Counted from the first letter of the stretch, positions 15,020 to 64,000 are shown. The stretch is DNA of 64,000 nucleotides from Eledone cirrhosa (GCA_964016885.1 OZ024766.1:13082001-13146000); one strand, 5' to 3'. Translations and numbers: made by a program. Notes: generated by a model from the letters alone, not told the origin.

Positions 15020-15272
15020 GTGCTGAAATTCTTGTTTGACGGACTTCAGCCGGTCTGGTGGTAGCCTTTAGGTCGTGCAGCGACAGGTGGGCCGTGTGTT
15101 ATTATGCGAACTGCGCTTCGATGTGCGCGAACCACAGTGTTAGATCGTGCACCCAGAATGGTGGAATTCTTAATGTAAATGCCGCCCTCACTGCCATTTC
15201 TGCCGTAGATGAATCGTCGTGTGCTAGAGACATCGTTTGTAGTGGATGATCAGAAGTTGTGTGTCTGTTTTA

Positions 15273-19720: not shown

Positions 19721-20143
19721 ATATACTACTGTACGTCTGTATACATATATGTATGTATGTATACATACTTTATATTTAAGTAACAGCCGCACTAAGAGTG
19801 AGAAATGAAATTTTGTTTCATTTTTTCCACACATATATATATATATATAGAATAGGGGAAGGGGGTGGGGCTACTGAAGCTACAAAGGACCGAGGGGCTG
19901 CCTCGGGTGGGCGAGAAAATGAAAAGGACGACGACAAAGAAAGAGGACTGGGGTGGAAGGACTAGGGAGGGATGGGGAGAAGAAGGAAATATAGAGGAAG
20001 CGATAAAAAGATATAAAAGATCTTACGTCTACCTTTGCAAGCAGGGGTTACCCATTACAAAATCGGCAAGTGGGGTGTTATAGCCCTAGTCTACCCCACG
20101 GGTCATTATGGGGTTTTAGGGCGAGGTAAGTCCTACGCAATCT

Positions 20144-29621: not shown

Positions 29622-29831
29622 CTCGTATACGAGAGACGTGTGTTGACGTGTGTGAACAAGCTCGGCTACCGAGTCGGATTTACTTACTCAAAAAGTGAGT
29701 TTTGATTAATTTTTTATACTGTAATATACGGTAACCCCTTGCCTTGGTCGTCAAACTTTGAGTTTATTTATTTTCGCCCCTTTTTGGGGCGAATTTTCCA
29801 GTTAAAAATTTATTACGGTAAACTAATAGAA

Positions 29832-31553: not shown

Positions 31554-31574
31554 GTCCTTCCTCTTTTAACCAAC

Positions 31575-34500
31575 ATGGCTGATATAAGAGTTGGGTGTCT
31601 GAATGTACGCGGCCTGGGACTGTCTTGGAAACAAGGCAAACTTTTAAACGATCTCAGGTCGCATAGAATGGACGTAATGGCTATTTGCGAGTCCAGGATC
31701 AGCAGCGAGCACCAACTGGCGCCCCTCTTCGACGACTTTGAGATCTTCGCATCTCTCTGTCAACCGGAGGGTGGGGGTGGAGTTGTCGTTCTGCTGCGAA
31801 AACACCTGGGCCTCGCCATACAGAAGGTGCACCTGGACCCGGAGGGTCGACTGGTGGTTTTAGACGTCGGCAGTAGTGAAAGTGGAGCCCTTAGACTAAT
31901 AGCTGTGTACGCCCCTTTTTGGGCAGCACGGCCGGAATACTTCCAACGTCTGGAAACTTTTCTGGGATCGTCCCGCTCCTTGCTTTTAGTGGGGGACTGG
32001 AATGGTATCCTGGATGCACGTTGGGACTATGTAGGGGCATGTGCCAATAGAGGGGGGTGTAAAAGCCTCAAAAGGTTAATCGGCCGATTTGACCTGGCCG
32101 ATAGATATCGACTAGATTTTCCGACTGTACCACTATGGACGTGGACCAATCGCAGTGGAACATCTAGGTCGTACCTAGATAGGGTCCTAGTTAGAGAGAA
32201 GGATAGGGACACATTTAGCTGTCCAAAAATGTTCATGGTTGACTATTCGGATCACAAGTTAGTGACCTGCATAGCCAACCTTGATAGAACCCATAGACAG
32301 GGACCCGGTTACTGGAAGCTGAACTTGTCCTTACCGAGAAGCAAAGCTTACAGTAAACGGATTAACACGTTAGTTAAGCAGAGTTTGACAGGGGCAATTG
32401 TCAACAACAGGTGGTGGATCTCTCTTAAGAGAGCAATTAGAATAGAATCGATAGGTTTTAGTCAGGAATTAGCAAGGGATAGGAACAAGACGGAAAGGGA
32501 ATTAGTAGATAGAGTAGAAGAGGCGATTAGGAGTGGCAATGTAGCCAGCGTGCTGGCATCAAGAATGGCCTTAGACCAGTTCTTTGAGGTGAAGCATGAA
32601 AGCTGCGTTGTCAGGAGTAAAATACGTGCTCTGGGTAATGAGGGAGCCAAAGCTGTGAGCTGGGCCCGAGTGACAGAGGCAAAAAGTGGGAACAAGTCCA
32701 CGATTCGGTCTTTGAAGGACCAGGATGGGCATGTGATCCTTGAACCTGGGCAGATGTGTGCGGCCTTTCAGCGGCACTTTGCACGACTGTTCGAGAGGGG
32801 CGGCGCGCCGGGTGAGACTATGGATTTCAATCCATACCTCGACGGTCTGCCGCGCCTTTCGGACGCGGAGGCGAAGTCCTGCGAAAGGACGATTTCAGCT
32901 GCTGAGCCAATGCGGCAAACGCAAATCCCCGGGTCTCGATGGTCTACTATACGAGCTATATGTAGCGATGCCGGGCTTGTTCTCCGATATCCTCGAAGCG
33001 GTCTACTGCAACTGGCAGCAGAACGGGAGAATTCCCAGTTCTGTGACCAAGGGCGTAGTTACGCTGGTGAGGAAGGATGAGAACAAGGGGGATGACATAA
33101 GTAACTTCAGGCCCATAACTCTGCTAAATACAGAGTTAAAGATTTTGGCCAAGGTGTTAGCGAAGAGGTTGGCGCTTGTCATCGGAAACCTGGTGGGAGA
33201 AGCGCAGACATGCGCAATCCCGTCCAGGTCCATTCATGACAATCTCCACCTTATGCGATACATCATAGAGAGGGTAGGGAATGAACCCGGCTTTGGTGGG
33301 GCCCTGATCAACTTGGATCAATCTAAAGCTTTCGATAGGGTTGACCATCGTTACCTGGATGCAGTGCTCGCGGCGGCAGGCTTCGGACCCGTTTTCAGGG
33401 GTTGGATTGCTGCGATGCACAGCAGCAACGTCTGCTCAAGGGTCAAGGTGAACGGCCACCTCTCGGAGCCGTTCCAAATCATGCGATCCATCCGACAGGG
33501 ATGCCCTCTCTCCTCCCTACTGTATGTGCTGGCTCTTGAGCCACTACTGCGGAAGTTGGAGCGGTTGCAGGGCATCCCTTTGGAACCGGGATTGCAGAAA
33601 GCGGCATCGGCCTACGCCGATGACGTGACAGTAATGGTGTCGAAAACCTCGCAAATCGGTGAGATCGGCACCTTACTGGAGGAATATGAAAGGTTTACAG
33701 GAGCCAAGCTGAACCGGGACAAGTCCGTCGGTTTGCAACTCGGAACATGGAGAGGCAAACCGATGCCCTCCAACGACGTCGTCGGACGCTGGACGGAGGG
33801 CCCGGTGGAGCTGCTTGGGGTCTGGTTCGGACCAGACCTCCAGGTGGAGAAAAACTGGAACGAGTTAACGGCCAGGGTGTTTGCCCTCACCCAGAAGTGG
33901 GCCCAGTGCAAACTATCCCTGAAAGGTCGAGCGGAGGTGGCGAATACTTATATAGCATCCGTCATCTACTACCGCTTGACCGTCGTGCCTTGCCCAGCGA
34001 AAAGACTCGCCAAAATGGAGTGCGCGCTGTTCCAATTTCTTTGGAACAAGCGGACCCCTTTGGTGAGGAGATCCATCTGCTGTCAACACCCTTCGAAAGG
34101 AGGGCTGGGGATATCATGGCTAAAGATGCGTAAACACGCATTAAGGCTACGGCACCTCCAGGTATTCCTCACCGGTCAACCGGTGTGGGCCCCGTTTGTG
34201 AGGCGAGCCTTTCCCAGACTCGTCTCGCTCACCGAGCTGCAAACCTGGGTCAAGCAAAGACCGAGAAAAGTGGGCGACTGGCACATTGAATGTGCCCAGG
34301 CGCTCACGGCCCTCTGGAAAGCGGACCCGGCAATCAGTGGAGACTCCACCTCGACATTCTATAGAGGGTTGGTACGCAGCAGGTGCAACGATGCTCTCGG
34401 AGAAGCTCTAGGCATGGAGGAAGATGAACTGGCCAGTCTGTTCGGTAGGACGTTTGGCCCTGGACCGATGGACAACTTCCAAAAGTCCCTGGCTTGGCAG

Positions 34501-34995
34501 TGCTACCGAGGGGCTCTACCCGTTCGAGACAAGCTCCACAGGCATGGGAGCCTGGGTAGAGATCCTTTGAATAAGATCTGTCCGAGATGCGTGCATGATG
34601 ACGAAACCGTTGCGCACGCATTCGTACACTGCCCAGGCATTGCTGACCTGTGGGGCTATGTGGAACGACTACTGTCGAGGGTGGGACCAATCCGGTTGAC
34701 CACCGAGTCTATTGTCACGATCAAACCGCCTCCCCCTTTCAAAAACGAAGGAGAGGCGGTTTTTCTCTGTGTGGTAGCCATGGCTAAAGAAGTTGTATGG
34801 TGGACGAGGCTGAAAGGGCTGAGGTCAGACACCTTTCTCTCCGGCCAACAACTGGTCCCCTTTTTCAAATACCATTTTAAAAGAAGGATCAGAATGGAGA
34901 GAGAGGTGCTCTACCCTAGCAAGTTTTATGAAAGGTGGGTGAAAGTAGGGAGAATGGCCAGAGTGAATGGGTCTTCTCTCTATATCAGCCTGTAG
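31575..34995 (+). CDS. Tx1-like ORF2 (APE endonuclease, RT, zf-RVT) with one frameshifting deletion near 32905
   Basis: CLNVRG, VGDWN, SYLDR, SDHK; KSPGLDG, FRPITLLN, LDQSKAFDRV, RQGCPLS, YADD; CPRC..ETVAHAFVHC. Confidence 0.9.
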
Positions 34996-36307: not shown

Positions 36308-39300
36308 GCAGAAACTGGTGCAGTAATACATCAACCCCAGTGCAGAAACTGGAGCATTAATACATCAACCCCAGTGCAGTAATACATCAATCCCAGTGCA
36401 GAAACTAGTGCAGTAATACATCAACCCCAGTGCAGTAATACATCAACCCCAGTGCAGTAACTGGTGCAGTAATACCTCAACCCCAGTGCAGTAATACATC
36501 AACCCCAGGGCAGAAACTGGTGCAGTAATACATCAACCCCAGTGCAGAAACTGGTGCAGTAATACATCAACCCCAGTGCAGAAACTGGTGCAGTAATACA
36601 TCAACCCCAGTGCAGTAATACATCAACCCCAGTGCAGAAACTGGTGCAGTAATACATCAACCCCAGTGCAGTAATACATCAACCCCAGTGCAGTAATACA
36701 TCAACCCCAGTGCAGTAATACATCAACCCCAGTGCAGTAATACATCAACCCCAGTGCAGAAACTGGTGCAGTAATACATCAACCCCAGTGCAGTAACTGG
36801 TGCAGTAATACATCAACCCCAGTGCAGTAACTGGTGCAGTAATACATCAACCCCAGTGCAGTAATACATCAACTCCAGTGCAGAAACTGGTGCAGTAATA
36901 CATCAACCCCAGTGCAGTAATACATCAACCCCAGTGCAGTAATACATCAACCCCAGTGCAGTAATACATCAACCCCAGTGCAGTAATACATCAACCCCAG
37001 TGCAGAAATTGGTGCAGTAATACATCAACCCCAGTGCAGTAATACATCAACCCCAGTGCAGAAACTGGTGCAGTAATACATCAACCCCAGTGCAGAAACT
37101 GGTGCAGTAATACATCAACCCCAGTGCAGTAACTGGTGCAGTAATACATCAACCCCAGTGCAGTAACTGGTGCAGTAATACATCAACCCCAGTGCAGTAA
37201 CTGGTGCAGTAATACATCAACCCCAGTGCAGAAACTGGTGCAGTAATACATCAACCCCAGTGCAGTAATACATCAACCCCAGTGCAGAAACTGGTGCAGT
37301 AATACGTCAACCCCAGTGCAGTAATACATCAAACCCAGTGCAGAAACTGGTGCAGTAATACATCAACCCCAGTGCAGTAACTGGTGCAGTAATACATCAA
37401 CCCCAGTGCAGTAACTGGTGCAGTAATACATCAACCCCAGTGCAGTAACTGGTGCAGTAATACATCAACCCCAGTGCAGTAACTGGTGCAGTAATACATC
37501 AACCCCAGTGCAGTAATACATCAACCCCAGTGCAGTAACTGGTGCAGTAATACATCAACCCCAGTGCAGAAACTGGTGCAGTAATACATTAACCCCAGTG
37601 CAGTAATACATCAACCCCAGTGCAGTAGTACATCAACCCCAGTGCAGAAACTGGTGCAGTAATACATCAACCCCAGTGCAGTAATACATCAACCCCAGTG
37701 CAGTAATACATCAACCGCAGTGCAGAAACTGGTGCAGTAATACATCAACCCCAGTGCAGTAATACATCAACTCCAGTGCAGAAACTGGTGCAGTAATACT
37801 TCAACCCCAGTGCAGAAACTGGTGCAGTAATACATCAACCCCAGTGCAGTAATACATCAACCCCAGTGCAGAAACTGGTGCAGTAATACATCAACCCCAG
37901 TGCAGTAATACATCAACCCCAGTGCAGAAACTGGTGCAGTAATACATCAACCCCAGTGCAGAAACTGGTGCAGTAATACATCAACCCCAGTGCAGTAACT
38001 GGTGCAGTAATACATCAACCCCAGTGCAGTAACTGGTGCAGTAATACATCAACCCCAGTGCAGTAATACATCAACCCCAGTGCAGAAACTGGTGCAGTAA
38101 TACATCAACCCCAGTGCAGTAATACATCAACCCCAGTGCAGTAATACATCAACCCCAGTGCAGAAACTGGTGCAGTAATACGTCAACCCCAGTGCAGTAA
38201 TACATCAACCCCAGTGCAGAAACTGGTGCAGTAATAAATCAACCCCAGGGCAGAAACTGGTGCAGTAATACATCAACCCCAGTGCAGAAACTGGTGCAGT
38301 AATACATCAACCCCAGTGCAGTAATATATCAACCCCAGTGCAGAAACTGGTGCAGTAATACATCAACCCCAGTGCAGTAATACATCAACCCCAGGGCAGA
38401 AACTGGTGCAGTAATACATCAACCCCAGTGCAGTAATACATCAACCCCAGGGCAGAAACTGGTGCAGTAATACATCAACCCCAGTGCAGAAACTGGTGCA
38501 GTAATACATCAACCCCAGGGCAGAAACTGGTGCAGTAATAATCAACCCCAGTGCAGTAATACATCAACCCCAGTGCAGAAACTGGTGCAGTAATACATCA
38601 ACCCCAGTGCAGTAATACATCAACCCCAGGGCAGAAACTGGTGCAGTAATACATCAACCCCAGTGCAGTAATACATCAACCCCAGGGCAGAAACTGTTGC
38701 AGTAATACATCAACCCCAGTGCAGAAACTGGTGCAGTAATACATCAACCCCAGGGCAGAAACTGGTGCAGTAATACATCAACCCCAGTGCAGAAACTGGT
38801 GCAGTAATACATCAACCCCAGTGCAGAAACTGGTGCAGTAATACATCAACCCAGTGCAGTAATACATCAACCCCAGTGCAGAAACTGGTGCAGTAATACA
38901 TCAACCCCAGTGCAGTAATACATCAACTCCAGTGCAGAAACTGGTGCAGTAATACATCAACCCCAGTGCAGAAACTGGTGCAGTAATACATCAACCCCAG
39001 TGCAGTAATACTTCAACCCCAGTGCAGAAACTGGTGCAGTAATACATCAACCCCAGGGCAGTAACTGGTGCAGTAATACATCAACCCCAGTGCAGTAACT
39101 GGTGCAGTAATACATCAACCCCAGTGCAGTAATACATCAACCCCAGTGCAGTAATACATCAACCCCAGTGCAGAAACTGGTGCAGTAATACATCAACCCC
39201 AGTGCAGTAACTGGTGCAGTAATATATCAACCCCAGGGCAGTAACTGGTGCAGTAATACATCAACCCCAGTGCAGAAACTGGTGAAGTAATACATCAACC

Positions 39301-41700
39301 CCAGGGCAGTAACTGGTGCAGTAATACATCAACCCCAGTGCAGTAACTGGTGCAGAAATACATCAACCCCAGTGCAGTAACTGGCGCAGTAATACATCAA
39401 CCCCACTTCAGTAATACATCAACCCCAGGGCAGAAACTGGTGCAGTAATACATCAAGCCCAGTGCAGAAAATGGTGCAGTAATACATCTACCCCAGTGCA
39501 GTAATACATCAACCCCAGTGCAGAAACTGGTGCAGTAATACATCAACCCCAGTGCAGTAATACATCAACCCCAGGGCAGAAACTGGTGCAGTAATACATC
39601 AACCCCAGTGCAGAAACTGGTGCAGTAATACATCAACCCCAGTGCAGAAACTGGTGCAGTAATACATCAACCCCAGTGCAGTAACTGGTGCAGTAATACA
39701 TCAACCCCAGTGCAGTAACTGGTGCAGTAATACATCAACCCCAGTGCAGAAACTGGTGCAGTAATACATCAACCCCAGTGCAGTAATACATCAACCCCAG
39801 TGCAGAAACTGGTGCAGTAATACATCAACCCCAGTGCAGAAACTGGTGCAGTAATACATCAACCCCAGTGCAGAAACTGGTGCAGTAATACATCAACACC
39901 AGTGCAGTAATACATCAACCCCAGTGCAGTAATACATCAACCCCAGTGCAGTAATACATCAACCCCAGTGCAGAAACTGGTGCAGTAATACATCAACCCC
40001 AGTGCAGAAACTGGTGCAGTAATACATCAACCCCAGGGCAGAAACTGGTGCAGTAATACATCAACCCCAGTGCAGTAATACATCAACCCCAGTGCAGAAA
40101 CTGGTGCAGTAATACATCAACCCCATTGCAGAAACTGGTGCAGTAATACATCAACCCCAGTGCAGAAACTGGTGCAGTAATACATCAACACCAGTGCAGT
40201 AATACATCAACCCCAGTGCAGTAATACATCAACCCCAGTGCAGTAATACATCAACCCCAGTGCAGAAACTGGTGCAGTAATACATCAACCCCAGTGCAGA
40301 AACTGGTGCAGTAATACATCAACCCCAGTGCAGAAACTGGTGCAGTAATACATCAACCCCAGGGCAGAAACTGGTGCAGTAATACATCAACCCCAGTGCA
40401 GTAATACATCAACCCCAGGGCAGAAACTGGTGCAGTAATACATCAACCCCAGGGCAGAAACTGGTGCAGTAATACATCAACCCCAGTGCAGAAACTGGTG
40501 CAGTAATACATCAACCCCAGTGCAGAAACTGGTGCAGTAATACATCAACCCCAGGGCAGAAACTGGTGCAGTAATACATCAACCCCAGTGCAGTAATACA
40601 TCAACCCCAGGGCAGAAACTGGTGCAGTAATACATCAACCCCAGGGCAGAAACTGGTGCAGTAATGCATCAACCCCAGTGCAGAAACTGGTGCAGTAATA
40701 CATCAACCCCAGTGTAGTAATACATCAACCCCAGGGCAGAAACTGGTGCAGTAATACATCAACCCCAGTGCAGTAATACATCAACCCAGGGCAGAAACTA
40801 GTGCAGTAATACATCAACCCCAGTGCAGAAACTGGTGCAGTACTACATCAACCCCAGGGCAGAAACTGGTGCAGTAATACATCAACCCCAGTGCAGTAAT
40901 ACATCAACCCCAGGGCAGAAACTGGTGCAGTAATACATCAACCCCAGTGCAGTAATACATCAACCCCAGGGCAGAAACTGGTGCAGTAATACATCAACCC
41001 CAGTGCAGTAATACATCAACCCCAGGGCAGAAACTGGTGCAGTAATACATCAACCCCAGTGCAGTAATACATCAACCCCAGGGCAGAAACTGGTGCAGTA
41101 ATACATCAACCCCAGTGCAGAAACTGGTGCAGTAATACATCAACCCCAGGGCAGAAACTGGTGCAGTAATACATCAACCCCAGTGCAGTAATACATCAAC
41201 CCCAGGGCAGAAACTGGTGCAGTAATACATCAACCCCAGGGCAGAAACTGGTGCAGTAATACATCAACCCCAGGGCAGAAACTGGTGCAGTAATACATCA
41301 ACCCCAGTGCAGAAACTGGTGCAGTAATACATCAACCCCAGTGCAGAAACTGGTGCAGTAATACATCAACCCCAGTGCAGTAATACATCAACCCCAGTGC
41401 AGAAACTGGTGCAGTAATATATCAACCCCAGTGCAGAAACTGGTGCAGTAATACATCAACCCCAGTGCAGTAATACATCAACCCCAGTGCAGAAACTGAT
41501 GCAGTAATACATCAACCCCAGTGCAGAAACTGGTGCAGTAATACATGAACCCCAGGGCAGAAACTGGTGCAGTAATACATCAACCCCAGGGCAGAAACTG
41601 GTGCAGTAATACATCAACACCAGGGCAGTAACTGGTGCAGTAATACATCAACCCCAGTGCAGTAACTGGTGCAGTAATACATCAACCCCAGGGCAGAAAC
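36308..41700 (+). repeat. Two-module minisatellite (22-bp gtgcagtaatacatcaacccca, with or without 12-bp gtgcagaaactg), about 5.4 kb
   Basis: 22- and 34-bp units are irregularly interspersed, with variants gtgcag/gggcag and aaactg/taactg. Confidence 0.95.
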
Positions 41701-41983: not shown

Positions 41984-44900
41984 CTAAAGTCTGTCTTAAA
42001 CCAGAAGGATGTTAGGCCGGTAGTTATCCTGGTTTCATTGTGTGAAGTGACTGAGAGTACAAGACTTCCCCCTGGACAGGACACCAGTCCATCACAGGGT
42101 AATGTTAAGTCTAAAGTCTGTCTTAAACCAGAAGGATGTTAGGCCGGTAGTTATCCTGGTTTCATTGTGTGAAGTGACTGACAGTACAAGACTTCCCCCT
42201 GGACAGGACACCAGTCCATCACAGGGTTATGTTAAGTCTAAAGTCTGTCTTAAACCAGAAGGATGTTAGGCCGGTAGTTATCCTGGTTTCATGGTGTGAA
42301 GTGACTGAGAGTACAAGACTTCCTCCTGGACAGGACACCAGTCCATCACAGGGTTATGTTAAGTCTAAAGTCTGTCTTAAGCCAGAAGGATGTTAGGCCG
42401 GTACTTATCCTGGTTTCATGGTGTGAAGTGACTGAGTGTACAAGACTTCCCCCTGGACAGGACACCAGTCCATCACAGGGTAATGTTAAGTCTAAAGTCT
42501 GTCTTAAACCAGAAGGATGTTAGGCCGATACTTATCCTGGTTTCATGGTGTGATGTGACTGAGAGTACAAGACTTCCCCCTGGACAGGACACCAGTCCAT
42601 CACAGGGTTATATTAAGTCTAAAGTCTGTCTTAAGCCAGAAGGATGTTAGGCCGGTACTTATCCTGGTTTCATGGTGTGATGTGACTGAGAGTACAAGAC
42701 TTCCCCCTGGACAGGACACCAGTCCATCACAGGGTAATGTTAAGTCTAAAGTCTGTCTTAAGCCAGAAGGATGTTAGGCCGGTACTTATCCTGGTTTCAT
42801 GGTGTGAAGTGACTGAGAGTACAAGACTTCCCCCTGGACAGGACACCAGTCCATCACAGGGTTATGTTAAGTCTAAAGTCTGTCTTAAACCAGAAGGATG
42901 TTAGGCCGGTACTTATCCTGGTTTCATGGTGTGAAGTGACTGAGAGTACAAGACTTCCTCCTGGACAGGACACCAGTCCATCACAGGGTTATGTTAAGTC
43001 TAAAGTCTGTCTTAAGCCAGAAGGATGTTAGGCCGGTACTTATCCTGGTTTCATGGTGTGAAGTGACTGAGAGTACAAGACTTCCCCCTGGACAGGACAC
43101 CAGCCCATCACAGGATTATGTTAAGTCTAAAGTCTGTCTTAAGCCAGAAGGATGTTAGGCCGGTACTTATCCTGGTTTCATGGTGTGATGTGACTGAGCG
43201 TACAAGACTTCCCCCTGGACAGGACACCAGTCCATCACAGGGTAATGTTAAGTCTAAAGTCTGTCTTAAACCAGAAGGGTGTTAGGCCGGTACTTATCCT
43301 GGTTTCATGGTGTGATGTGACTGAGAGTATAAGACTTCCCCCTGGACAGGACACCAGTCCATCACAGGGTAATGTTAAGTCTAAAGTCTGTCTTAAGCCA
43401 GAAGGATGTTAGGCCGGTACTTATCCTGGTTTCATGGTGTGAAGTGACTGAGAGTACAAGACTCCCCATGGACAGGACACCAGTCCATCACAGGGTAATG
43501 TTAAGTCTAAAGTCTGTCTTAAGCCAGAAGGATGTTAGGCCGGTACTTATCCTGGTTTCATGGTGTGAAGTGACTGAGAGTACAAGACTTCCCCCTGGAC
43601 AGGACACCAGTCCATCACAGGGTAATGTTAAGTCTAAAGTCTGTCTTAAGCCAGAAGGATGTTAGGCCGGTACTTATCCTGGTTTCATGGTGTGAAGTGA
43701 CTGAGAGTACAAGACTTCCCCCTGGACAGGACACCAGTCCATCACAGGGTAATGTTAAGTCTAAAGTCTGTCTTAAGCCAGAAGGATGTTAGGCCGGTAC
43801 TTATCCTGGTTTCATGGTGTGAAGTGACTGAGAGTACAAGACTTCCTCCTGGACAGGACACCAGTCCATCACAGGGTAATGTTAAGTCTAAAGTCTGTCT
43901 TAAGCCAGAAGGATGTTAGGCCGGTACTTATCTTGGTTTCATGGTGTGAAGTGACTGAGAGTACAAGACTTCCTCCTGGACAGGACACCAGTCCATCACA
44001 GGGTTATGTTAAGTCTAAAGTCTGTCTTAAACCAGAAGGATGTTAGGCCGGTACTTATCCTGGTTTCATGGTGTGAAGTGACTGAGAGTACAAGACTTCC
44101 TCCTGGACAGGACACCAGTCCATCACAGGGTTATGTTAAGTCTAAAGTCTGTCTTAAACCAGAAGGATGTTAGGCCGGTACTTATCCTGGTTTCATGGTG
44201 TGAAGTGACTGAGAGTACAAGACTTCCTCCTGGACAGGACACCAGTCCATCACAGGGTTATGTTAAGTCTAAAGTCTGTCTTAAACCAGAAGGATGTTAG
44301 GCCGGTACTTATCCTGGTTTCATGGTGTGATGTGACTGAGCGTACAAGACTTCCCCCTGGACAGGACACCAGTCCATCACAGGGTTATATTAAGTCTAAA
44401 GTCTGTCTTAAGCCAGAAGGATGTTAGGCCGGTACTTATCCTGGTTTCATGGTGTGATGTGACTGAGAGTACAAGACTTCCCCCTGGACAGGACACCAGT
44501 CCATCACAGGGTAATGTTAAGTCTAAAGTCTGTCTTAAGCCAGAAGGATGTTAGGCCGGTACTTATCCTGGTTTCATGGTGTGAAGTGACTGAGAGTACA
44601 AGACTTCCCCCTGGACAGGACACCAGTCCATCACAGGGTTATGTTAAGTCTAAAGTCTGTCTTAAACCAGAAGGATGTTAGGCCGGTACTTATCCTGGTT
44701 TCATGGTGTGAAGTGACTGAGAGTACAAGACTTCCTCCTGGACAGGACACCAGTCCATCACAGGGTTATGTTAAGTCTAAAGTCTGTCTTAAGCCAGAAG
44801 GATGTTAGGCCGGTACTTATCCTGGTTTCATGGTGTGAAGTGACTGAGAGTACAAGACTTCCCCCTGGACAGGACACCAGCCCATCACAGGATTATGTTA

Positions 44901-47900
44901 AGTCTAAAGTCTGTCTTAAGCCAGAAGGATGTTAGGCCGGTACTTATCCTGGTTTCATGGTGTGATGTGACTGAGCGTACAAGACTTCCCCCTGGACAGG
45001 ACACCAGTCCATCACAGGGTAATGTTAAGTCTAAAGTCTGTCTTAAACCAGAAGGGTGTTAGGCCGGTACTTATCCTGGTTTCATGGTGTGATGTGACTG
45101 AGAGTATAAGACTTCCCCCTGGACAGGACACCAGTCCATCACAGGGTAATGTTAAGTCTAAAGTCTGTCTTAAGCCAGAAGGATGTTAGGCCGGTACTTA
45201 TCCTGGTTTCATGGTGTGAAGTGACTGAGAGTACAAGACTCCCCATGGACAGGACACCAGTCCATCACAGGGTAATGTTAAGTCTAAAGTCTGTCTTAAG
45301 CCAGAAGGATGTTAGGCCGGTACTTATCCTGGTTTCATGGTGTGAAGTGACTGAGAGTACAGGACTTCCCCCTGGACAGGACACCAGTCCATCACAGGGT
45401 AATGTTAAGTCTAAAGTCTGTCTTAAGCCAGAAGGATGTTAGGCCGGTACTTATCCTGGTTTCATGGTGTGAAGTGACTGAGAGTACAAGACTTCCCCCT
45501 GGACAGGACACCAGTCCATCACAGGGTAATGTTAAGTCTAAAGTCTGTCTTAAGCCAGAAGGATGTTAGGCCGGTACTTATCCTGGTTTCATGGTGTGAA
45601 GTGACTGAGAGTACAAGACTTCCTCCTGGACAGGACACCAGTCCATCACAGGGTAATGTTAAGTCTAAAGTCTGTCTTAAGCCAGAAGGATGTTAGGCCG
45701 GTACTTATCTTGGTTTCATGGTGTGAAGTGACTGAGAGTACAAGACTTCCTCCTGGACAGGACACCAGTCCATCACAGGGTTATGTTAAGTCTAAAGTCT
45801 GTCTTAAACCAGAAGGATGTTAGGCCGGTACTTATCCTGGTTTCATGGTGTGAAGTGACTGAGAGTACAAGACTTCCTCCTGGACAGGACACCAGTCCAT
45901 CACAGGGTTATGTTAAGTCTAAAGTCTGTCTTAAACCAGAAGGATGTTAGGCCGGTACTTATCCTGGTTTCATGGTGTGAAGTGACTGAGAGTACAAGAC
46001 TTCCTCCTGGACAGGACACCAGTCCATCACAGGGTTATGTTAAGTCTAAAGTCTGTCTTAAACCAGAAGGATGTTAGGCCGGTACTTATCCTGGTTTCAT
46101 GGTGTGATGTGACTGAGCGTACAAGACTTCCCCCTGGACAGGACACCAGTCCATCACAGGGTAATGTTAAGTCTAAAGTCTGTCTTAAACCAGAAGGGTG
46201 TTAGGCCGGTACTTATCCTGGTTTCATGGTGTGATGTGACTGAGAGTATAAGACTTCCCCCTGGACAGGACACCAGTCCATCACAGGGTAATGTTAAGTC
46301 TAAAGTCTGTCTTAAGCCAGAAGGATGTTAGGCCGGTACTTATCCTGGTTTCATGGTGTGAAGTGACTGAGAGTACAAGACTCCCCATGGACAGGACACC
46401 AGTCCATCACAGGGTAATGTTAAGTCTAAAGTCTGTCTTAAGCCAGAAGGATGTTAGGCCGGTACTTATCCTGGTTTCATGGTGTGAAGTGACTGAGAGT
46501 ACAAGACTTCCCCCTGGACAGGACACCAGTCCATCACAGGGTAATGTTAAGTCTAAAGTCTGTCTTAAGCCAAAAGGATGTTAGGCCGGTACTTATCCTG
46601 GTTTCATGGTGTGAAGTGACTGAGAGTACAAGACTTCCCCCTGGACAGGACACCAGTCCATCACAGGGTAATGTTAAGTCTAAAGTCTGTCTTAAGCCAG
46701 AAGGATGTTAGGCCGGTACTTATTCTGGTTTCATGGTGTGAAGTGACTGAGAGTACAAGACTTCCTCCTGGACAGGACACCAGTCCATCACAGGGTTATG
46801 TTAAGTCTAAAGTCTGTCTTAAACCAGAAGGATGTTAGGCCGGTACTTATCCTGGTTTCATGGTGTGAAGTGACTGAGAGTACAAGACTTCCTCCTGGAC
46901 AGGACACCAGTCCATCACAGGGTTATGTTAAGTCTAAAGTCTGTCTTAAACCAGAAGGATGTTAGGCCGGTACTTATCCTGGTTTCATGGTGTGAAGTGA
47001 CTGAGAGTACAAGACTTCCTCCTGGACAGGACACCAGTCCATCACAGGGTTATGTTAAGTCTAAAGTCTGTCTTAAACCAGAAGGATGTTAGGCCGGTAC
47101 TTATCCTGGTTTCATGGTGTGAAGTGACTGAGAGTACAAGACTTCCTCCTGGACAGGACACCAGTCCATCACAGGGTTATGTTAAGTCTAAAGTCTGTCT
47201 TAAACCAGAAGGATGTTAGGCCGGTACTTATCCTGGTTTCATGGTGTGAAGTGACTGAGAGTACAAGACTTCCTCCTGGACAGGACACCAGTCCATCACA
47301 GGGTTATGTTAAGTCTAAAGTCTGTCTTAAACCAGAAGGATGTTAGGCCGGTACTTATCCTGGTTTCATGGTGTGAAGTGACTGAGAGTACAAGACTTCC
47401 TCCTGGACAGGACACCAGTCCATCACAGGGTTATGTTAAGTCTAAAGTCTGTCTTAAACCAGAAGGATGTTAGGCCGGTACTTATCCTGGTTTCATGGTG
47501 TGAAGTGACTGAGAGTACAAGACTTCCTCCTGGACAGGACACCAGTCCATCACAGGGTTATGTTAAGTCTAAAGTCTGTCTTAAACCAGAAGGATGTTAG
47601 GCCGGTTCTTATCCTGGTTTCATGGTGTGAAGTGACTGAGAGTACAAGACTTCCCCCCTGGACAGGACACCAGTCCATCACAGGGTAATGTTAAGTCTAA
47701 AGTCTGTCTTAAACCAGAAGGATGTTAGGCCGGTAGTTATCCTGGTTTCATGGTGTGAAGTGACTGAGAGTACAAGACTCCCCCTGGACAGGACACCAGT
47801 CCATCACAGGGTTATGTTAAGTCTAAACTCTGTCTTAAACCAGAATGATGTTAAGCTGGTAGTTATCCTGGTTTCATGGTGTGAAGTGACTGAGAGTACA

Positions 47901-48195
47901 AGACTTCCCCCTGGACAGGACACCAGTACATCACAGGGTTATGTTAAGTCTAAACTCTGTCTTAAACCAGAATGATGTTAAGCTGGTAGTTATCCTGGTT
48001 TCATGGTGTGAAGTGACTGAGAGTACAAGACTTCCCCCTGGACAGGACACCAATCCATCACAGGGTTATGTTAAGTCTAAAGTCTGTCTTAAGCTAGAAG
48101 AATGTTAGGCCGGTACTTATCCTGGTTTCATGGTGTGAAGTGACTGAGAGTACAAGACTTCCCCCTGGACAGGACACCAGTCCATCACAGGGTTA
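41984..48195 (+). repeat. 127-bp satellite (about 49 copies) derived from a SINE 3' tail
   Basis: The unit matches 23760-23875, and the last copy runs on into SINE body (…tttcagctgagtatactggag at about 48225-48243). Confidence 0.93.
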
Positions 48196-50602: not shown

Positions 50603-51365
50603 GTATATATACATATATATACATGTGTAAACTGCAGAATATGATCTTTGTTGTTGTAAGACAGAAGAGAGTGATATTTGGCTGCTATTTCTACCAAGTC
50701 AAGTAACCAGGTAGGAGACTCCCTCGTTGATACGTAATACATATTTTACTGGGAGATGTTGTTTGTTTTACCAGGGGTTGGATACAATTGATGGAGTGAA
50801 TTGATATAACTGAAGGTATTAAATTATGTCAGGGACTTTTAACGTATGACACCGGTGTTATTCAGGAGAGTGAAACATTACCAACGACAGCACGCACCTG
50901 CCATCTTAATTATAACTTTAATTAATCTAATTATATCTTGTGTATCAATTATATCATGTTAAGGTGAAAGTTAATATTCTGTAGATAACATAGAGTGAGT
51001 TACATGTTCCAGGGTAGGTGTTCCATCTCCTACATGATTAAATATTTCATTTCATGAGAAACTACGCCACATCGTGAATTGGTTGTTCCACATTTTACAG
51101 GACAGTGAGAAATAGGTTTAAATCACCAACATCTGAACAATTAGCTTTCCTGGTCTTTCTTGAATTTACACTTGGACTTGAAATATAAAGTACGTATTAT
51201 TTGTATTGTTAACACAGCAGATATTGTGTACTTTTCTACACTCTGTGGTGAACAATCCCCATTTATTAAGACACACACACACTCTCTCTTACACTTTCTT
51301 ATACCAACATCTGTCTTACACAGTCATATATCCTGAGAACTTCGAAGAATTCTTCAAGAATTACC

Positions 51366-52617
<1,252 letters not shown>

Positions 52618-52977
52618 GGGAAATCTTTCATTAGTAACACTGAATATAATAAACACAAAATAACACACGCTTGTGAAAAACTTTTTACACAGTGAAATAT
52701 GTGGGAAATGTTTTTTTCTCTAACAGTTACTTAGACACAAACATACAGAGGAATGAAAGTTTTTAACTGTGAAACACGGACATCCTTCCTCTTACAAATC
52801 TAAAATTATTTTCCACCAATATCAAATGTGAATACTTGGCAGTTTGATAGACTCCAAACATTGCTGGCCATTTTTACAAATATATTTTCATTTGAAATTG
52901 AAATCTTTCTCTGATCTATTCTTGACTTTTTGAATTAATTTTAAATCTATGCCAGAAATTTCAGCCTTGGTTTGTCA

Positions 52978-53977: not shown

Positions 53978-55703
53978 CCATCTAAATCTGTTGTTAACAC
54001 CATATGTAATGATATCATCTTGTAAGTAGTTTTAATACATCTAACACCCATCTAAATCTCTGTTATTAACACCATATGTAATGATATCATCTTGTAAGTA
54101 GTTTTAATACATCTAACACCCATCTAAATCTCTGTTATTAACACCACATGTAATGATATCATCTTGTAAGTAGTTTTAATATCTAACACACATCTAAATC
54201 TCTGTTATTAACACCATATGTAATGATATCTTGTAAGTAGTTTTAATACATCTAACACCCATCTAAATCTCTGTTATTAACACCATATGTAATGATATCA
54301 TCTTGTAAGTAGTTTTAATACATCTAACACCCATCTAAATCTCTGTTATTAACACCATATGTAATGATATCATCTTGTAAGTAGTTTTAATACATCTAAC
54401 ACCCATCTAAATCTCTGTTATTAACACCATATGTAATGATATCATCTTGTAAGTAGTTTTAATATCTAACACCCATCTAAATCTCTGTTATTAACACCAT
54501 ATGTAATGATATCATCTTGTAAGTTGTTTTAATACATCTAACACCCATCTAAATCTGTTATTAAGACCATATGTAATGATATCATCTTGTAAGTAGTTTT
54601 AATACATCTAACACCCATCTAAATCTGTTATTAACACCATATGTAATGATATCATCTTGTGGGTAGTTTTAATACATCTAACACCCATCTAAATCTCTGT
54701 TATTAACACCATATGTAATGATATCATCTTGTAAGTAGTTTTAATACATCTAACACCCATCTAAATCTCTGTTATTAACACCATATGTAATGATATCATC
54801 TTGTAAGTAGTTTTAATATCTAACATCCATCTAAATCTCTGTTTTTAATACCATATGCAATGATATCATCTTGTGGGTAGTTTTAATACATCTAACACCC
54901 ATCTAAATCTCTGTTATTAACACCATATGTAATGATATCATCTTGTAAGTAGTTTTAATATCTAACATCCATCTAAATCTCTGTTATTAACACCATATGT
55001 AATGATATCATCTTGTAAGTAGTTTTAATACATCTAACACCCATCTAAATCTCTGTTATTAACACCATATGTAATGATATCATCTTGTAAGTAGTTTTAA
55101 TACATCTAACACCCATCTAAATCTCTGTTATTAACACCATATGTAATATCATCTTGTAAGTAGTTTTAATACATCTAACACCCATCTAAATCTCTGTTAT
55201 TAACACCATATGTAATGATATCATCTTGTAAGTAGTTTTAATACATCTAACACCCATCTAAATCTCTGTTATTAACACCATATGTAATGATATCATCTTG
55301 TAAGTAGTTTTAATACATCTAACACCCATCTAAATCTCTGTTATTAACACCATATGTAATGATATCATCTTGTAAGTAGTTTTAATACATCTAACACCCA
55401 TCTAAATCTCTGTTATTAACACCATATGTAATGATATCATCTTGTAAGTAGTTTTAATATCTAACACCCATCTAAATCTCTGTTATTAACACCATATGTA
55501 ATGATATCATCTTGTAAGTAGTTTTAATACATCTAACACCCATCTAAATCTCTGTTATTAACACCATATGTAATGATATCATCTTGTAAATAGTTTTAAT
55601 ACATCTAACATCCATCTAAATCTCTGTTATTAACACCATATGTAATGATATCTTGTAAGTAGTTTTAATACATCTAACATCCATCTAAATCTCTGTTATT
55701 AAC
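53978..55703 (+). repeat. 72-bp AT-rich tandem array (about 24 copies), unrelated to the MITE 72-mer
   Basis: Unit ccatctaaatctctgttattaacaccatatgtaatgatatcatcttgtaagtagttttaatacatctaacac. Confidence 0.95.
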
Positions 55704-56104
55704 AGCACTAGCAGAAAAACCACCCTAGCATGTGTACTGTGTATATTGATATTATACACAAATATATATGCATGTAAATAAAATTGTAATTGACAATATA
55801 CACAGAAATTGAACGAAGACTGCGTTACACTGTCTTATTTAACCAGTAACGTAATCCATGATATATTAAAAAAAGAAGATATTTTATATAAACTGGATTA
55901 GGAGAAAATTAGTGACGGAAATATATGAATGTTTATTTAAGCGATTGCCACCGGAAGTGTTGACATTTGAACATTTTAAAGAAGTAAATCTTTAAATAAA
56001 TAATAAAATCTTAACTATAATAAAGTAAGGAGCGTGGGACTGCATCCAGAATATATTTTTTTACCCCGTTTGTAAAATAAGTTGGGTTACTTTGAATAAA
56101 TAAT

Positions 56105-57563: not shown

Positions 57564-58580
57564 TTGTGTAATAGTAATATATACGAACGGCAAAGCATAA
57601 GTGAACTAAGTGAGAAATTAGGAATAAGAGGGATCAGATGCTGTTTACTCGAGAGAAGACTACGTTGGTATGGCCACGTGATGCGCATGAAAGACGACAG
57701 TTGTATAAAAAAGTGCAGGGCGATCAAAATAGATGGTAGCCACGGAGTAGTCAGACCCAGAAAAACCTGGGACGATCTGATAAATTCCGGCCTTACACAC
57801 TTGCACCTCTCTAAGACAATGTCCCTGGACCGAGGTCTTTGGCGCTATACAGTAATACAGAAGACCCGCCTTGCCTATGTACAAAGTAAAACCTACAGTC
57901 AGTAGGCACCTCTTAACCAAATATACACCCCAATCCACTACCCCTACCCTTTCCTCCCACTCCCACCAACACCACCCTCTCTCTATAAAGTTGCTACCAC
58001 AACATCCAGTCCAAATAAATGAGATAATGAGATCGAGGTCATGTAGGTGTCACAAGACAAAAACACACAGTCCACGCTGTAATGTGGCCGTGTAGGTAAC
58101 ACGGTAAAAACCTCCCAGTTCCACATTGTAAATGTGGTTCGAGTTAGGAAGGGCATCCAGCTGTAGAAAACCCGCCAGACATGTAGGTGTTACAACAAAA
58201 AAACACGCAGTCCACGCTGTAATGTGGCCGTGTAGGTAACACGGTAAAAACCTCCCAGTTCCACACTGTAAACGTGGTTGGTGTTAGGAAGGGCATCCAG
58301 CCGTAGAAAACCCACCAGACGTGTAGGTGTCACGAGACAAAAACACACAGTCCATGCTGTAATGTGGCCGTGTAGGTAACACGGTAAAAGGTTCCCAGTT
58401 CCACATTGTAAATGTGGTTGGTGTTAGGAAGGGCATCCAGCTGTAGAAAACCTTCCAGATAGTCCTATATGAGCGAGACACGGTCACCCGACCAACCTTG
58501 CCTCAGGTGGGACAACTCCCGTCTAACCCATGCTAGCGTGGAAAGTGGACGTTAAACGAAGATGATGATGCTGATGATGA
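57564..58580 (+). mobile_element. RTE LINE 3' fragment, same family as 16156-19720; 3' UTR segment triplicated
   Basis: The peptide nearly matches the C-terminus of 16498..18186; repeats at about 58040-58460; (gat)n tail. Confidence 0.9.
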
Positions 58581-58650
58581 CACAACACATGCTAGAAGGG
58601 TGGTTTTTCTGCTAGTCTACTTAACAAATTTCTCTTCTCATTGGCAACAG

Positions 58651-58780
58651 ATCAATTCTCTATGGACAGTCACCATGAATGTCTTCAACTTCTACTACCT
58701 CATTGCTTGCCGATTCCACATCCACGTAAGACGGCTGCCCCAAAACAGACGTTCGGCAGCTAATGTGAAGTTCTTCTTCA
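58651..58780 (+). CDS. TERT: TERT exon (C-terminal extension/thumb), phase 0-1
   Basis: ttctcattggcaacag acceptor and A|gtaagt donor. INSLWTVTMNVFNFYYLIACRFHIHVRRLPQNRRSAANVKFFF aligns without gaps to human TERT [43 protein letters not shown] (human sequence recalled, not searched). Confidence 0.8.
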
Positions 58781-58959
58781 GTAAGTTGATATTTGGAGCA
58801 TAACTTAATAAAGGTTCTGACATGGAATTATAATGAAAGGTTTTTAGAACAAACAGTTTTGTGTCATAGAAGTAGGGTTGTTTGGAACATAACTTAACAA
58901 AGGTTCTTATATAAAATTATCCATCAGAGTATTCGGTTTATGTGTGTTACTTATGTTTT

Positions 58960-59640
58960 AGAGAGTATTATGCACATAAAAAAATTCAACTTTTTTATCT
59001 CCTAGGGCCTGCATTAGGTGAAAAACTGCGTGTTTTTTTTCAGGTTTCTAGGGTTTTTTGAGGCGTTACGTCAGACCGATTTCCTTGAAATTGTAACTAT
59101 GTATTAGTCAGTCTCTTCTTCATAACGGGAGCAAAGAAAATCCAACTTTCTTATGGCCTAGGGCTCGCTTTAGGTGAAAAACTTCATTTTTTCAGCATTT
59201 TAGGGCTTTTTTTGAGGCGTTACATCAGACCGATTTCCTTGAAATTGTAACTATGTATTAGTCAGTCTCTTCTTCATACCGGGAGCAAAGAAAATCCAAC
59301 TTTCTTATGGCCTAGGGCTCGCTTTAGGTGAAAAACTTCATTTTTTCAGCATTTTAGGGCTTTTTTTGAAGCGTTACGTCAGACTGATTTCCTTGAAATT
59401 GTAACTATGTATTAGTCAGCCTCTTCTTCATACCGGGAGCAAAGAAAATCCAACTTTCTTATGGCCTAGGGCCCGCATTATGGTGAAAAACTTCATTTTT
59501 TTCAGCTTCTTAGGGCTTTTTTGAGGCGTTACGTCTATCAGATATCCCGAAATTTCAAGGTATATTATGCACATAAGAAAATTTCATTTCCTTGATCCCC
59601 TAGGGCCCACATTAGGTGAAAACCTGCATTTTTCCTGCTT
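58960..59640 (+). repeat. About 154-bp tandem repeat (about 4 copies)
   Basis: cctagggc...ttaggtgaaaaac...gaggcgttac recurs at about 59001, 59157, 59311, 59465 and 59599. Confidence 0.8.
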
Positions 59641-59754
59641 CATAGAGGGAAAAGCTTAGATTATCCAGCCATCAGACTATTCGGTTTATTTTCTTTACAT
59701 ATTGTCCAGGCATGCATTTTTTCCACAATTAGGTCTGTTGGTGGCCCGCGTTCC

Positions 59755-62700
59755 ATGTGGGAGTGGATTACATGTGGGGCTGGAGGGACAGTGGGAGTGG
59801 ATTACATGTGGGGCTGGAGGGACAGTGGGATTGGATTACATGTGGGGCTGGAGGGACAGTGGGAGTACATTACATGTGGGGCTGGAGGGACAGTGGGATT
59901 GCATTACATGTGGGGCTAGAGGGACAGTGGGATTGCATTACATGTGGGGCTGGAGGGACAGTGGGAGTGGATTACATGTGGGGCTGGAGGGACAGTGGGA
60001 GTGGATTACATGTGGGGCTGGAGGGACAGTGGGAGTACATTACATGTGGGGCTGGAGGGACAGTGGGATTGCATTACATGTGGGGCTGGAGGGACAGTGG
60101 GAGTGGATTACATGTGGGGCTGGAGGGACAGTGGGATTGCATTACATGTGGGGCTGGAGGGACAGTGGGAGTGGATTACATGTGGGGCTGGAGGGACAGT
60201 GGGAGTACATTACATGTGGGGCTGGAGGGACAGTGGGATTGCATTACATGTGGGGCTGGAGGGACAGTGGGAGTGGATTACATGTGGGGCTGGAGGGACA
60301 GTGGGATTGCATTACATGTGGGGCTGGAGGGACAGTGGGAGTGCATTACATGTGGGGCTGGAGGGACAGTGGAAGTGCATTACATGTGGGGCTGGAGGGA
60401 CTGGGATTGCATTACATGTGGGGCTGGAGGGACAGTGGGATTGGATTACATGTGGGGCTGGAGGGACAGTGGGAGTGGATTACATGTGGGGCTGGAGAGA
60501 CAGTGGGAGTGGATTACATGTGGGGCTGGAGAGACAGTGGGAGTGGATTACATGTGGGGCTGGAGGGACAGTGGGAGTGGATTACATGTGGGGCTGGAGG
60601 GACAGTGGGAGTGCATTACATGTGGGGCTGCAGGGACAGTGGGAGTGCATTACATGTGGGGCTGGAGGGACAGTGGGAGTGCATTACATGTGGGGCTGGA
60701 GGGACAGTGGGAGTGCATTACATGTGGGGCTGGAGGGACTGGGATTGCATTACATGTGGGGCTGGAGAGACAGTGGGAGTGCATTACATGTGGGGCTGCA
60801 GGGACAGTGGGAGTGCATTACATGTGGGGCTGGAGGGACAGTGGGAGTGCATTACATGTGGGGCTGGAGGGACAGTGGGAGTGCATTACATGTGGGGCTG
60901 GAGGGACAGTGGGAGTGCATTACATGTGGGGCTGGAGGGACTGGGATTGCATTACATGTGGGGCTGGAGAGACAGTGGGAGTGCATTACATGTGGGGCTG
61001 GAGGGACAGTGGGAGTGCATTACATGTGGGGCTGGAGGGACAGTGGGAGTGCATTACATGTGGGGCTGGAGGGACTGGGATTGCATTACATGTGGGGCTG
61101 GAGGGACAGTGGGATTGGATTACATGTGGGGCTGGAGGGACAGTGGGAGTGGATTACATGTGGGGCTGGAGAGACAGTGGGAGTGCATTACATGTGGGGC
61201 TGGAGAGACAGTGGGAGTGGATTACATGTGGGGCTGGAGGGACAGTGGGAGTGCATTACATGTGGGGCTGCAGGGACAGTGGGAGTGCATTACATGTGGG
61301 GCTGCAGGGACAGTGGGAGTGCATTACATGTGGGGCTGGAGGGACAGTGGGAGTGCATTACATGTGGGGCTGCAGGGACAGTGGGAGTGCATTACATGTG
61401 GGGCTGGAGAGACAGTGGGAGTGGATTACATGTGGGGCTGGAGGGACAGTGGGAGTGCATTACATGTGGGGCTGGAGGGACAGTGGGATTGCATTACATG
61501 TGGGGCTGGAGGGACTGGGATTGCATTACATGTGGAGCTGGAGGGACAGTGGGAGTACATTACATGTGTGGCTGGAGTGACAGTGGGAGTGGATTACATG
61601 TGGGGCTGGCGGGACAGTGGGAGTGGATTACATGTGGGGATGGAGGGACAGTGGCAGTGGATTACATGTGGGGCTGGAGGGACAGTGGGAGTGCATTACA
61701 TGTGGGGCTGGAGGGGCAGTGGGAGTGCATTACATGTGGGGCTGGAGGGACAGTGGGAGTGCATTACATGTGGGGCTGCAGGGACAGTGGGAGTGCATTA
61801 CATGTGGGGCTGGAGGGACAGTGGGAGTGCATTACATGTGGTGCTGGAGGGACAGTGGGAGTGCATTACATGTGGGGCTGGAGGGACAGTGGGATTGCAT
61901 TACATGTGGGGCTGGAGGGACAGTGGGAGTGGATTACATGTGGGGCTGGAGGGACAGTGGGAGTGGATTACATGTGGGGCTGGAGGGACAGTGGCAGTGG
62001 ATTACATGTGGGGCTGGAGGGACAGTGGGATTGCATTACATGTGGGGCTGGAGGGACAGTGGCAGTGGATTACATGTGGGGCTGGAGGGACAGTGGCAGT
62101 GGATTACATGTGGGGCTGGAGGGACAGTGGGATTGCATTACATGTGGGGCTGGAGGGACAGTGGCAGTGGATTACATGTGGGGCTGGAGGGACAGTGCCA
62201 GTGGATTACATGTGGGGCTGGAGGGACAGTGGGAGTGCATTACATGTGGGGCTGGAGGGACAGTGGCAGTGGATTACATGTGGGGCTGGAGGGACAGTGG
62301 CAGTGGATTACATGTGGGGCTGGAGGGACAGTGGGATTGCATTACATGTGGGGCTGGAGGGACAGTGGGAGTGGATTACATGTGGGGCTGGAGGGACAGT
62401 GGCAGTGGATTACATGTGGGGCTGGAGGGACAGTGGGAGTGCATTACATGTGGGGCTGGAGGGACAGTGGGAGTGCATTACATGTGGGGCTGGAGGGACA
62501 GTGGGATTGCATTACATGTGGGGCTGGAGGGACAGTGGCAGTGGATTACATGTGGGGCTGGAGGGACAGTGGGAGTGCATTACATGTGGGGCTGGAGGGA
62601 CAGTGGGATTGCATTACATGTGGGGCTGGAGGGACAGTGGCAGTGGATTACATGTGGGGCTGGAGGGACAGTGGGAGTGCATTACATGTGGGGCTGGAGG

Positions 62701-62820
62701 GACAGTGGGAGTGCATTACATGTGGGGCTGGAGGGACAGTGGGAGTGCATTACATGTGGGGCTGGAGGGACAGTGGGAGTGCATTACATGTGGGGCTGGA
62801 GGGACAGTGGGAGTGCATTA
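59755..62820 (+). repeat. G-rich 34-bp minisatellite (about 90 copies)
   Basis: Unit cattacatgtggggctggagggacagtgggagtg. Confidence 0.97.
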
Positions 62821-62822
62821 TA

Positions 62823-62849
62823 CCGTGCAACGCCGGGTACCACTGCTAG
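62823..62849 (+). mobile_element. Helitron-like 3' terminus
   Basis: Hairpin ccgtgcaacgccgg, then a spacer and CTAG followed by T. Confidence 0.5.
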
Positions 62850-62894
62850 TATGTCAAAACGGGGGCCCTACATATATAATGTCTCTATTTTCAG

Positions 62895-62953
62895 ATGGTA
62901 TCCGACATATTGCCAGCTACTTCATCCAGCAAACACGTTTCCACATGAAGAAG
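62895..62953 (+). CDS. TERT: TERT exon, 59 nt, phase 1-0
   Basis: tctctattttcag acceptor and AAG|gtgagt donor. It joins in frame to give NGIRHIASYFIQQTRFHMKK (compare human RVISDTASLC). Confidence 0.7.
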
Positions 62954-63272
62954 GTGAGTAGAGGTAGGTGGGGGACATGGGAGGGAGGGAGGTGGGTAAC
63001 TGGGGGATATGGGGGGGAGTAAGTGGGTAACGGGAGACATGGGACGGGGTAACTGGGGGACATGGGAGAGAGAATGGTGGCTAACTGGGGCACATGGGAG
63101 GGGCGTAGAGGGGTAACTGGGAGACGTGAGAGGGAGGGAGGTGGGGGACATGGGTAGGTGGGTAACTGGAGGACATGGGAGGGAGGAAGGTGGGTAACTG
63201 GGGGATATGTGAGGGTGGGATGGGGAGGCCTGGGAGTTTTTTGTTTGTGAAGGTGGTGGTGTGCTACATATA

Positions 63273-64000
63273 CCACTCTCTCCAGCCCCACATGTAATGC
63301 ACTCCCACTGTCCCTCCAGCCCCACATGTAATGCAATCCCACTGTCCCTCCAGCCCCACATGTAATGTACTCCCACTGTCCCTCCAGCCCCACATGTAAT
63401 GCACTCCCACTGTCTCTCCAGCCCCACATGTAATGCAATCCCACTGTCCCTCCAGCCCCACATGTAATGCACTCCCACTGTCACTCCAGCCCCACATGTA
63501 ATCCACTCCCATTGTCTCTCCAGCCACACATGTAATGCACTCCCACTGTCTCTCCAGCCCCACATGTAATGCAATCCCACTGTCCCTCCAGCCCCACATG
63601 TAATGCACTCCCACTGTCACTCCAGCCCCACATGTAATCCACTCCCATTGTCTCTCCAGCCCCACATGTAATGCACTCCCACTGTCCCTCCAGCCCCACA
63701 TGTAATCCACTCCCACTGTCTCTCCAGCCCCACATGTAATCCACTCCCACTGTCCCTCCAGCCCCACATGTAATGCACTCCCACTGTCTCTCCAGCCCCA
63801 CATGTAATGCAATCCCAGTACCTCCAGCCCCACATGTAATGCACTCCCACTGTCCCTCCAGCCCCACATGTAATGCACTCCCACTGTCCCTCCAGCCCCA
63901 CATGTAATGCACTCCCACTGTCTCTCCAGCCCCACATGTAATGCAATCCCAGTCCCTCCACCCCCACATGTAATGCACTCCCACTGTCCCTCCAGCCCCA
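63273..64000 (-). repeat. Same 34-bp minisatellite in inverted orientation (at least 21 copies, runs off the window)
   Basis: Unit cactcccactgtccctccagccccacatgtaatg is the reverse complement of the 59755-62820 unit. Confidence 0.97.

Follow-up and report, generated by a model that had tools for sequence, protein, structure and literature searches.

Does an exon of the telomerase gene TERT that lies between two long inverted arrays of one minisatellite mark a splicing switch, or an accident that the locus tolerates? The question is raised by a window of 64,000 nucleotides from Eledone cirrhosa (GCA_964016885.1 OZ024766.1:13082001-13146000), in which a first-pass annotation had seen a copy-number-tunable telomerase splicing switch. 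We consider it likely that the window repeats are a tolerated accident instead of a splicing switch. A locus-private minisatellite was probably copied once, in inverted orientation, across a TERT exon and spread by segmental duplication, and would be tolerated, not regulatory.

The exons were assigned by homology. The most 5' TERT exon detected in the window copy is a 130-nt exon that begins INSLWTV (58651-58780, + strand) and shares 67% identity with an Octopus vulgaris TERT and 56% with an Argonauta protein, two proteins that carry Pfam TERT_C; against the PDB it gave four weak matches, all of them to TERT (best E 0.029). The 59-nt exon (NGIRHIASYFIQQTRFHMKK region; 62895-62953, + strand) is in frame with it and is 50% identical to O. 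vulgaris TERT 103-128 (E 0.002), a query that also detects three further exons. Homolog searches with the 43-aa exon and with O. vulgaris TERT gave no match among longer proteins. Homology to TERT_C thus identifies the exons as TERT C-terminal extension (thumb/CTE). The good splice sites that the first-pass annotation had pointed out are canonical AG/GT (TTTTCAG before the exon, GTGAGT after it), and the length, 59 nt, is indeed not a multiple of three. Skipping the exon would shift the frame of the thumb domain, as had been anticipated, and the 7th codon then read in the following exon, of 56 nt, is a stop.

The upstream 34-bp array (59757-62820, + strand; period 34, 90.4 copies, 95% matches, G-rich sense strand) is separated by a spacer of 459 bp (62821-63279) from the downstream array, the reverse complement of the 34-mer (- strand), which occupies 63280-64000 in the window (21.3 copies). 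In the neighbouring assembly sequence the downstream array runs on for a further 3.1 kb beyond the window end, to extended coordinate 67140, for a total of 113.8 copies. These figures bear out an earlier count of about 90 upstream and at least 21 inverted downstream copies around about 450 bp. Tandem arrays as such are ordinary here: they make up 33-55% of the sequence in the five blocks first examined, and each intron between detected TERT exons carries at least one. Among 293 arrays in 1.62 Mb (partly redundant), the window pair is the only strong inverted pair within 5 kb that is not (AT)n, with two weak inverted pairs besides. The unit itself is private to the duplicated block described below, in that a 30-mer core gave 330 exact genome matches (0 for the reversed control) and all 330 fall within four copies of the TERT-tail block. 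A dispersed satellite family was rejected on the same ground, the exact 34-mer core being confined to those four copies. An origin of the 34-mer in the G-rich spacer was also considered and set aside, the relation not being significant (108 of 500 shuffles were as good).

Near-full matches to the spacer occur at four places in the genome: A (the window), B (C27:14.25 Mb), C (C27:14.72 Mb) and D (C23:29.10 Mb). All four copies have both arrays with identical borders and different unit orders, and the exon-bearing spacer is intact in each. Upstream and downstream unit counts are 90/114 in A, 66/19 in B, 47/36 in C and 31/97 in D; unit number therefore does vary, as the proposal of a tunable copy number supposed, but between paralogues, and a regulatory effect is unsupported. 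Flanks common to the copies span about 60-120 kb. Measured over about 4.57 kb of unique flank, divergence from A is 0.48% for B, 0.33% for C and 0.70% for D, and it lies at 0.33-0.70% in all nine segments. Since both arrays have the same borders in all four copies, the inversion is older than the duplications. DNA-like runs X1-X3 have a depth of 31-33 over the exon, a value that comes without a single-copy control and so gives no copy number.

These comparisons also bear on the possibility that faulty assembly, through chimeric fold-back reads or false haplotype duplication, produced the inversion or the truncated window copy. A and C, the closest pair at 0.33%, have a zinc-finger frameshift in common and may, judged from their sequences, be two haplotypes on one scaffold. 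The catalytic TERT exons were not found although the telomeres are canonical (see below), which points to a missing or misplaced piece. Against an assembly product, the four copies share borders while differing in unit orders and SNPs, and the identical borders are not what a single chimeric fold-back would give. The two arms are inexact mirrors, differing in unit order with a longest exact stretch in common of 167 nt, which argues against a chimeric fold-back read, and there is no N gap in or near any of the four copies. We therefore give an assembly product a very slim chance, and regard the inverted-array arrangement around the exon as real, locally rare and of a known kind.

How the arrays came to face each other is suggested by the element that hosts the upstream one. 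This element is presumably Helitron-like, a label given for the 3' palindrome and CTAG that mark such elements. Its body (58940-59755, + strand) contains an internal 154-bp tandem array (58981-59535), and its 3' end (62821-62849, + strand) has an imperfect GC palindrome, then CTAG before T. The best piece of the body is 77-90% identical in each of four dispersed copies (L005-L008), and 36 of the 40 spacer matches listed in the genome are the Helitron-like 3' end alone; palindrome, CTAG before T and dispersed copies were thus all found. In all three dispersed copies with junction sequence, a few bases stand at the site where the window has the 34-bp array, placing the insertion of the upstream array near the 3' end of the element. 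The interruption of the element by the array points to a single local event of inverted copying that preceded the duplications, and from the geometry and short junction microhomologies we infer that the downstream array served as template for the inverted copy that entered the element. A template switch in repair or replication would have copied the downstream array, inverted, to the upstream site, ordinary minisatellite turnover would have kept arm identity up, and segmental duplication would then have spread the inverted pair, with unit counts diverging between copies.

Two families of mobile element resemble this arrangement in part. Non-autonomous Helitrons can carry internal tandem arrays, and the host here is likewise a dispersed element with a 3' GC palindrome and CTAG whose window copy holds both 154-bp and 34-bp arrays; the 34-mer, however, does not belong to the family, being absent from the dispersed copies and from the rest of the genome. 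Foldback elements have tandem-repeat terminal inverted repeats, with long inverted arms around a short loop, and the window too has two long inverted arms of tandem units around a short loop. A foldback transposon was nevertheless rejected: the four copies moved within 60-120 kb duplications with long common flanks, not bounded by the arms, and 330 of 330 core matches lie inside those flanks.

We next consider what the arrays would do in RNA. In a predicted fold of 5+5 units they form 154 array-array pairs, with a duplex at -347 kcal/mol. The first-pass suggestion of double-stranded RNA is upheld by this prediction, while its size of at least 700 bp is not, the potential stem reaching up to about 3.06 kb. 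Transcribed introns are predicted to pair and to be ADAR-edited: they would form a long duplex, which octopod ADAR would presumably hyper-edit and unwind. In PMC5625713, Octopus is described as having exceptionally high hyper-editing and dsRNA potential, and ADARs as unwinding such duplexes. Between the upstream array and the 3' splice site of the 59-nt exon lie 74 nt, and between its 5' splice site and the downstream array 326 nt. Because neither splice site falls within the stem formed by the two arrays, and both are transcribed 326 nt ahead of any unit that could pair, exon definition would be expected to prevail in most cases. The MFE fold places 35 pairs between the exon and the G-rich spacer and 51 between the 3' splice region and that spacer, which means that an open loop is not assured. 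That the MFE loop need not be open, and that the inverted pair is locally rare, are counter-points to the tolerated-accident reading. The age of the arrays, which predate the duplications, also counts against it when taken with the human TERT case, where repeat pairing can drive skipping (PMC3948165).

G-quadruplexes offered another possible activity for the arrays, and the first-pass annotation had the array G-strand folding into them. No canonical G4 motif was present in the 34-bp array even when loops of up to 12 nt were allowed, and the array's G4Hunter-type score has a mean of 1.09 and a maximum of 1.84, by which a non-canonical G4 is possible. Six canonical motifs with loops up to 7 lie instead in the G-rich start of the following intron (62954-63279, + strand), which contains degenerate ~32-bp repeats. 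This intron start appears to be a stronger candidate for a G4 or G-run than the arrays are, and it is a candidate splicing enhancer; G-runs downstream of a 5' splice site often enhance exon inclusion. The back-splicing that had been suggested also finds little footing, a single 59-nt exon being a poor circle candidate and very short beside the Alu-type single-exon circles, which favour long exons (PMC5748671).

The window copy as assembled cannot encode full TERT: it is a truncated duplicate of the gene tail. TERT was found in this assembly only as five partial 3' copies on three scaffolds, C27 (13.14, 14.24-14.25 and 14.70-14.73 Mb), C23 (29.10 Mb) and C10 (54.77 Mb). The 103-nt penultimate exon has three genome matches (B, C and the lone C10 piece) and none in A; the last TERT exon is in B and C only, among the blocks examined, and is absent from A; and in D the 59-nt exon alone remains, flanked by both arrays. 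Beyond its 49-mer array, 16.5 kb long, A passes via a fold-back into sequence that lies beyond the gene end in C. This fold-back (3.5 kb, extended 86320-89770, 88-97% arm identity) marks the breakpoint where A lost the last two exons.

The missing 5' part of the gene was sought locally and genome-wide. With octopod and bivalve TERT queries, no RT or TRBD exon was detected upstream in about 320 kb of A, 410 kb of B or 370 kb of C, where the search ended at the first gap; the sensitivity of local tblastn is such that CTE exons of 20-25 residues were recovered at E 0.002-0.03 in 140-184 kb. A genome-wide PF12009 search for the TERT 5' part gave 13 candidates, none convincing, and its control matched nowhere. 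Three protein queries and four motif stretches run genome-wide returned only CTE exons, retroelement-type RT frames or matches at E >0.3, in searches insensitive to short exons (one missed three of the five known TERT exons). One motif-E-like match (C10:54807965-54808024, - strand, E 0.048) lies 43 kb upstream of the lone C10 exon, on the same strand as the C10 fragment, and 0 of 30 shuffles reached E 0.05. It was set aside as likely chance, since the closer O. vulgaris query misses it and many query-region pairs were tried.

Of 20 scaffold ends inspected, four consist of (CCCTAA)n across 3 kb. These canonical (TTAGGG)n telomeres make telomerase loss unlikely and suggest that a complete TERT exists, unassembled, distant or undetected. 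The absence of catalytic exons is most likely an assembly hole or a matter of undetected small exons. TERT in this assembly should be used with the warning that it is present only as duplicated 3' fragments. Because the arrays are older than the duplications, they are likely to be present in the functional TERT gene as well.

The evidence on splicing comes from four runs of one study that contain the 130-nt exon, the run type being unrecorded for all four. Over 58460-58980, X1-X3 each yield a contig spanning the 130-nt exon and its flanks. X4 yields one 578-nt contig, of depth 10 and with no differing letter, that aligns to 58649-58780 and leaves the unique flanks uncovered; because its cover is bounded by the exon we take X4 as likely RNA. 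The X4 contig aligns on the minus strand, with record positions 419-550 on the exon. Its orientation was deduced from two further records on the minus strand, clipped at the first base of the stretch, which indicate that positions are given in the record's own direction. Read this way, the contig has 30 nt before the 130-nt exon and 418 nt 3' of it; in the opposite orientation it would be uninformative on skipping. Inclusion accounts for 418 nt as 59+56+103+200, which would bring the end of the contig to the point at which a high-copy repeat begins within the last exon (20-mers are shared from offset 175 and 30-mers from 185, in 0.68 Mb). Skipping would need 259 nt of the last exon, well inside that repeat. 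The first-pass annotation had named inclusion versus skipping as the check to make, and by length this one likely RNA sample fits inclusion and fits skipping poorly, in lengths instead of letters. The predominant form therefore probably includes the 59-nt exon and would derive from a copy in which the last exons are present, thus not from A as assembled, a conclusion that depends on one run, on the deduced orientation and on contigs, which drop rare isoforms. The 30 upstream letters are one word length less one, a hint of an upstream exon with more than one continuation.

These data can be set against the proposal that, in a functional TERT, pairing of the arrays loops out the 59-nt exon at certain stages or in certain tissues, producing a premature stop and NMD, with array length and ADAR tuning telomerase dose. 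The near-perfect complementarity of up to about 3 kb, the frameshift on skipping and the retention of both arrays in all four copies suit this proposal, and NMD would hide the skipped form from ordinary RNA data. Precedents exist for human TERT VNTR pairing (PMC3948165), for the VNTR6-1 switch (PMC11830802) and for duplexes that loop out exons (PMC7404189). The lone RNA-like contig, however, appears unbranched across all four downstream junctions and fits inclusion; unit number, at 19 to 114, bears no sign of constraint; and the window copy has the coding defect already described. A working telomerase switch at this site, as first annotated, is thus unsupported, the last two exons being absent and no TERT exon lying upstream in about 320 kb. 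We regard looping-out of this kind in a functional TERT as unlikely. It is a little more doubtful still that a functional octopod TERT carries the same inverted pair and that its multi-kb duplex of many registers, tuned by length and by ADAR, acts on the thumb exon as a poison switch. If true, such a poison switch would be a second independent invention of repeat-controlled TERT splicing, by an inverted pair, coupled to the strongest editing system among the animals surveyed. It would represent convergent control of telomerase by intronic tandem repeats in human and octopod, and a natural test of ADAR editing protecting exons from looping-out. For the present the locus is chiefly of use as a natural test case, in which a 59-nt exon apparently survives although the complementary RNA on its two sides reaches up to 3 kb, and in which paralogues span 19 to 114 units per arm.

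The pair could instead have mattered at the DNA level, with the long inverted repeat extruding hairpins or stalling forks and so driving the duplications and deletions that scattered the TERT tail. Five partial tail copies on three scaffolds, and a second fold-back of about 3.5 kb at the 3' breakpoint of A, would accord with such instability. The breakpoints observed, however, are outside the 34-mer arrays (D near 58790 and in the 49-mer array, A at about 86290), and the spacer between the arms, the exon within it, came through intact in 4 of 4 copies. We consider this DNA-level role very unlikely.

Among known systems the closest in gene and position is the human TERT intron 6 38-bp VNTR6-1 (minus-beta skipping). 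In PMC3948165 skipping of exons 7-8 is driven by a 38-bp VNTR through RNA pairing, and PMC11830802 describes VNTR6-1 as a G4 splicing switch. Both cases have a G-rich variable tandem repeat in TERT introns and a possible skipped, frameshifting product, with RNA pairing or G4 proposed as the means in the human gene (PMC3948165; PMC11830802). There a single array pairs with non-repeat pre-mRNA and acts on RT-domain exons 7-8, and its function has been shown. Here, by contrast, two inverted arrays flank a CTE exon in a truncated copy, the unit has no canonical G4 motif, and no skipping was seen in one likely RNA run; pairing of repeats across the exon is found as a prediction only (the 154 pairs of the 5+5-unit fold).

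Inverted intronic repeats of the Alu type are the other comparison. RNA duplexes can loop out exons (PMC7404189), and as with Alu-type repeats (PMC7404189, PMC5625713 and PMC5748671) long near-perfect complementary arms lie in the introns around an exon. Alu-type repeats are dispersed elements, whereas the window arms are a locus-private tandem repeat that pairs in many registers. By analogy, then, the arrangement would work like an inverted intronic repeat pair, and its membership among repeat-controlled TERT switches is that of a candidate. Open-access literature on octopus or cephalopod telomerase, and on inverted intronic repeats with skipping, yielded no description of this arrangement.

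Several neighbouring features were recorded in the same block. A C2H2 zinc-finger exon lies in the window at 51270-52620 (+ strand), 6 kb upstream of the TERT fragment and on the same strand. It has 12 fingers in one frame in B and is frameshifted in A and C (6 fingers) and in D (7). The 5' exons of this zinc-finger gene could be a source of transcripts that splice into the TERT tail. Long retroelement-like frames at 12716-15067 (-), 16498-19769 (-) and 29706-34995 (+) were labelled by eye from their translations as RT, RNase H and integrase-like, and as endonuclease and RT-like. Other large arrays occupy 36308-41696, 41984-48195 and 53978-55704 in the window and 69755-86289 in extended coordinates; these arrays (a 22/34-bp mix, 127 bp, 72 bp and 49 bp) differ in length between the duplicates.
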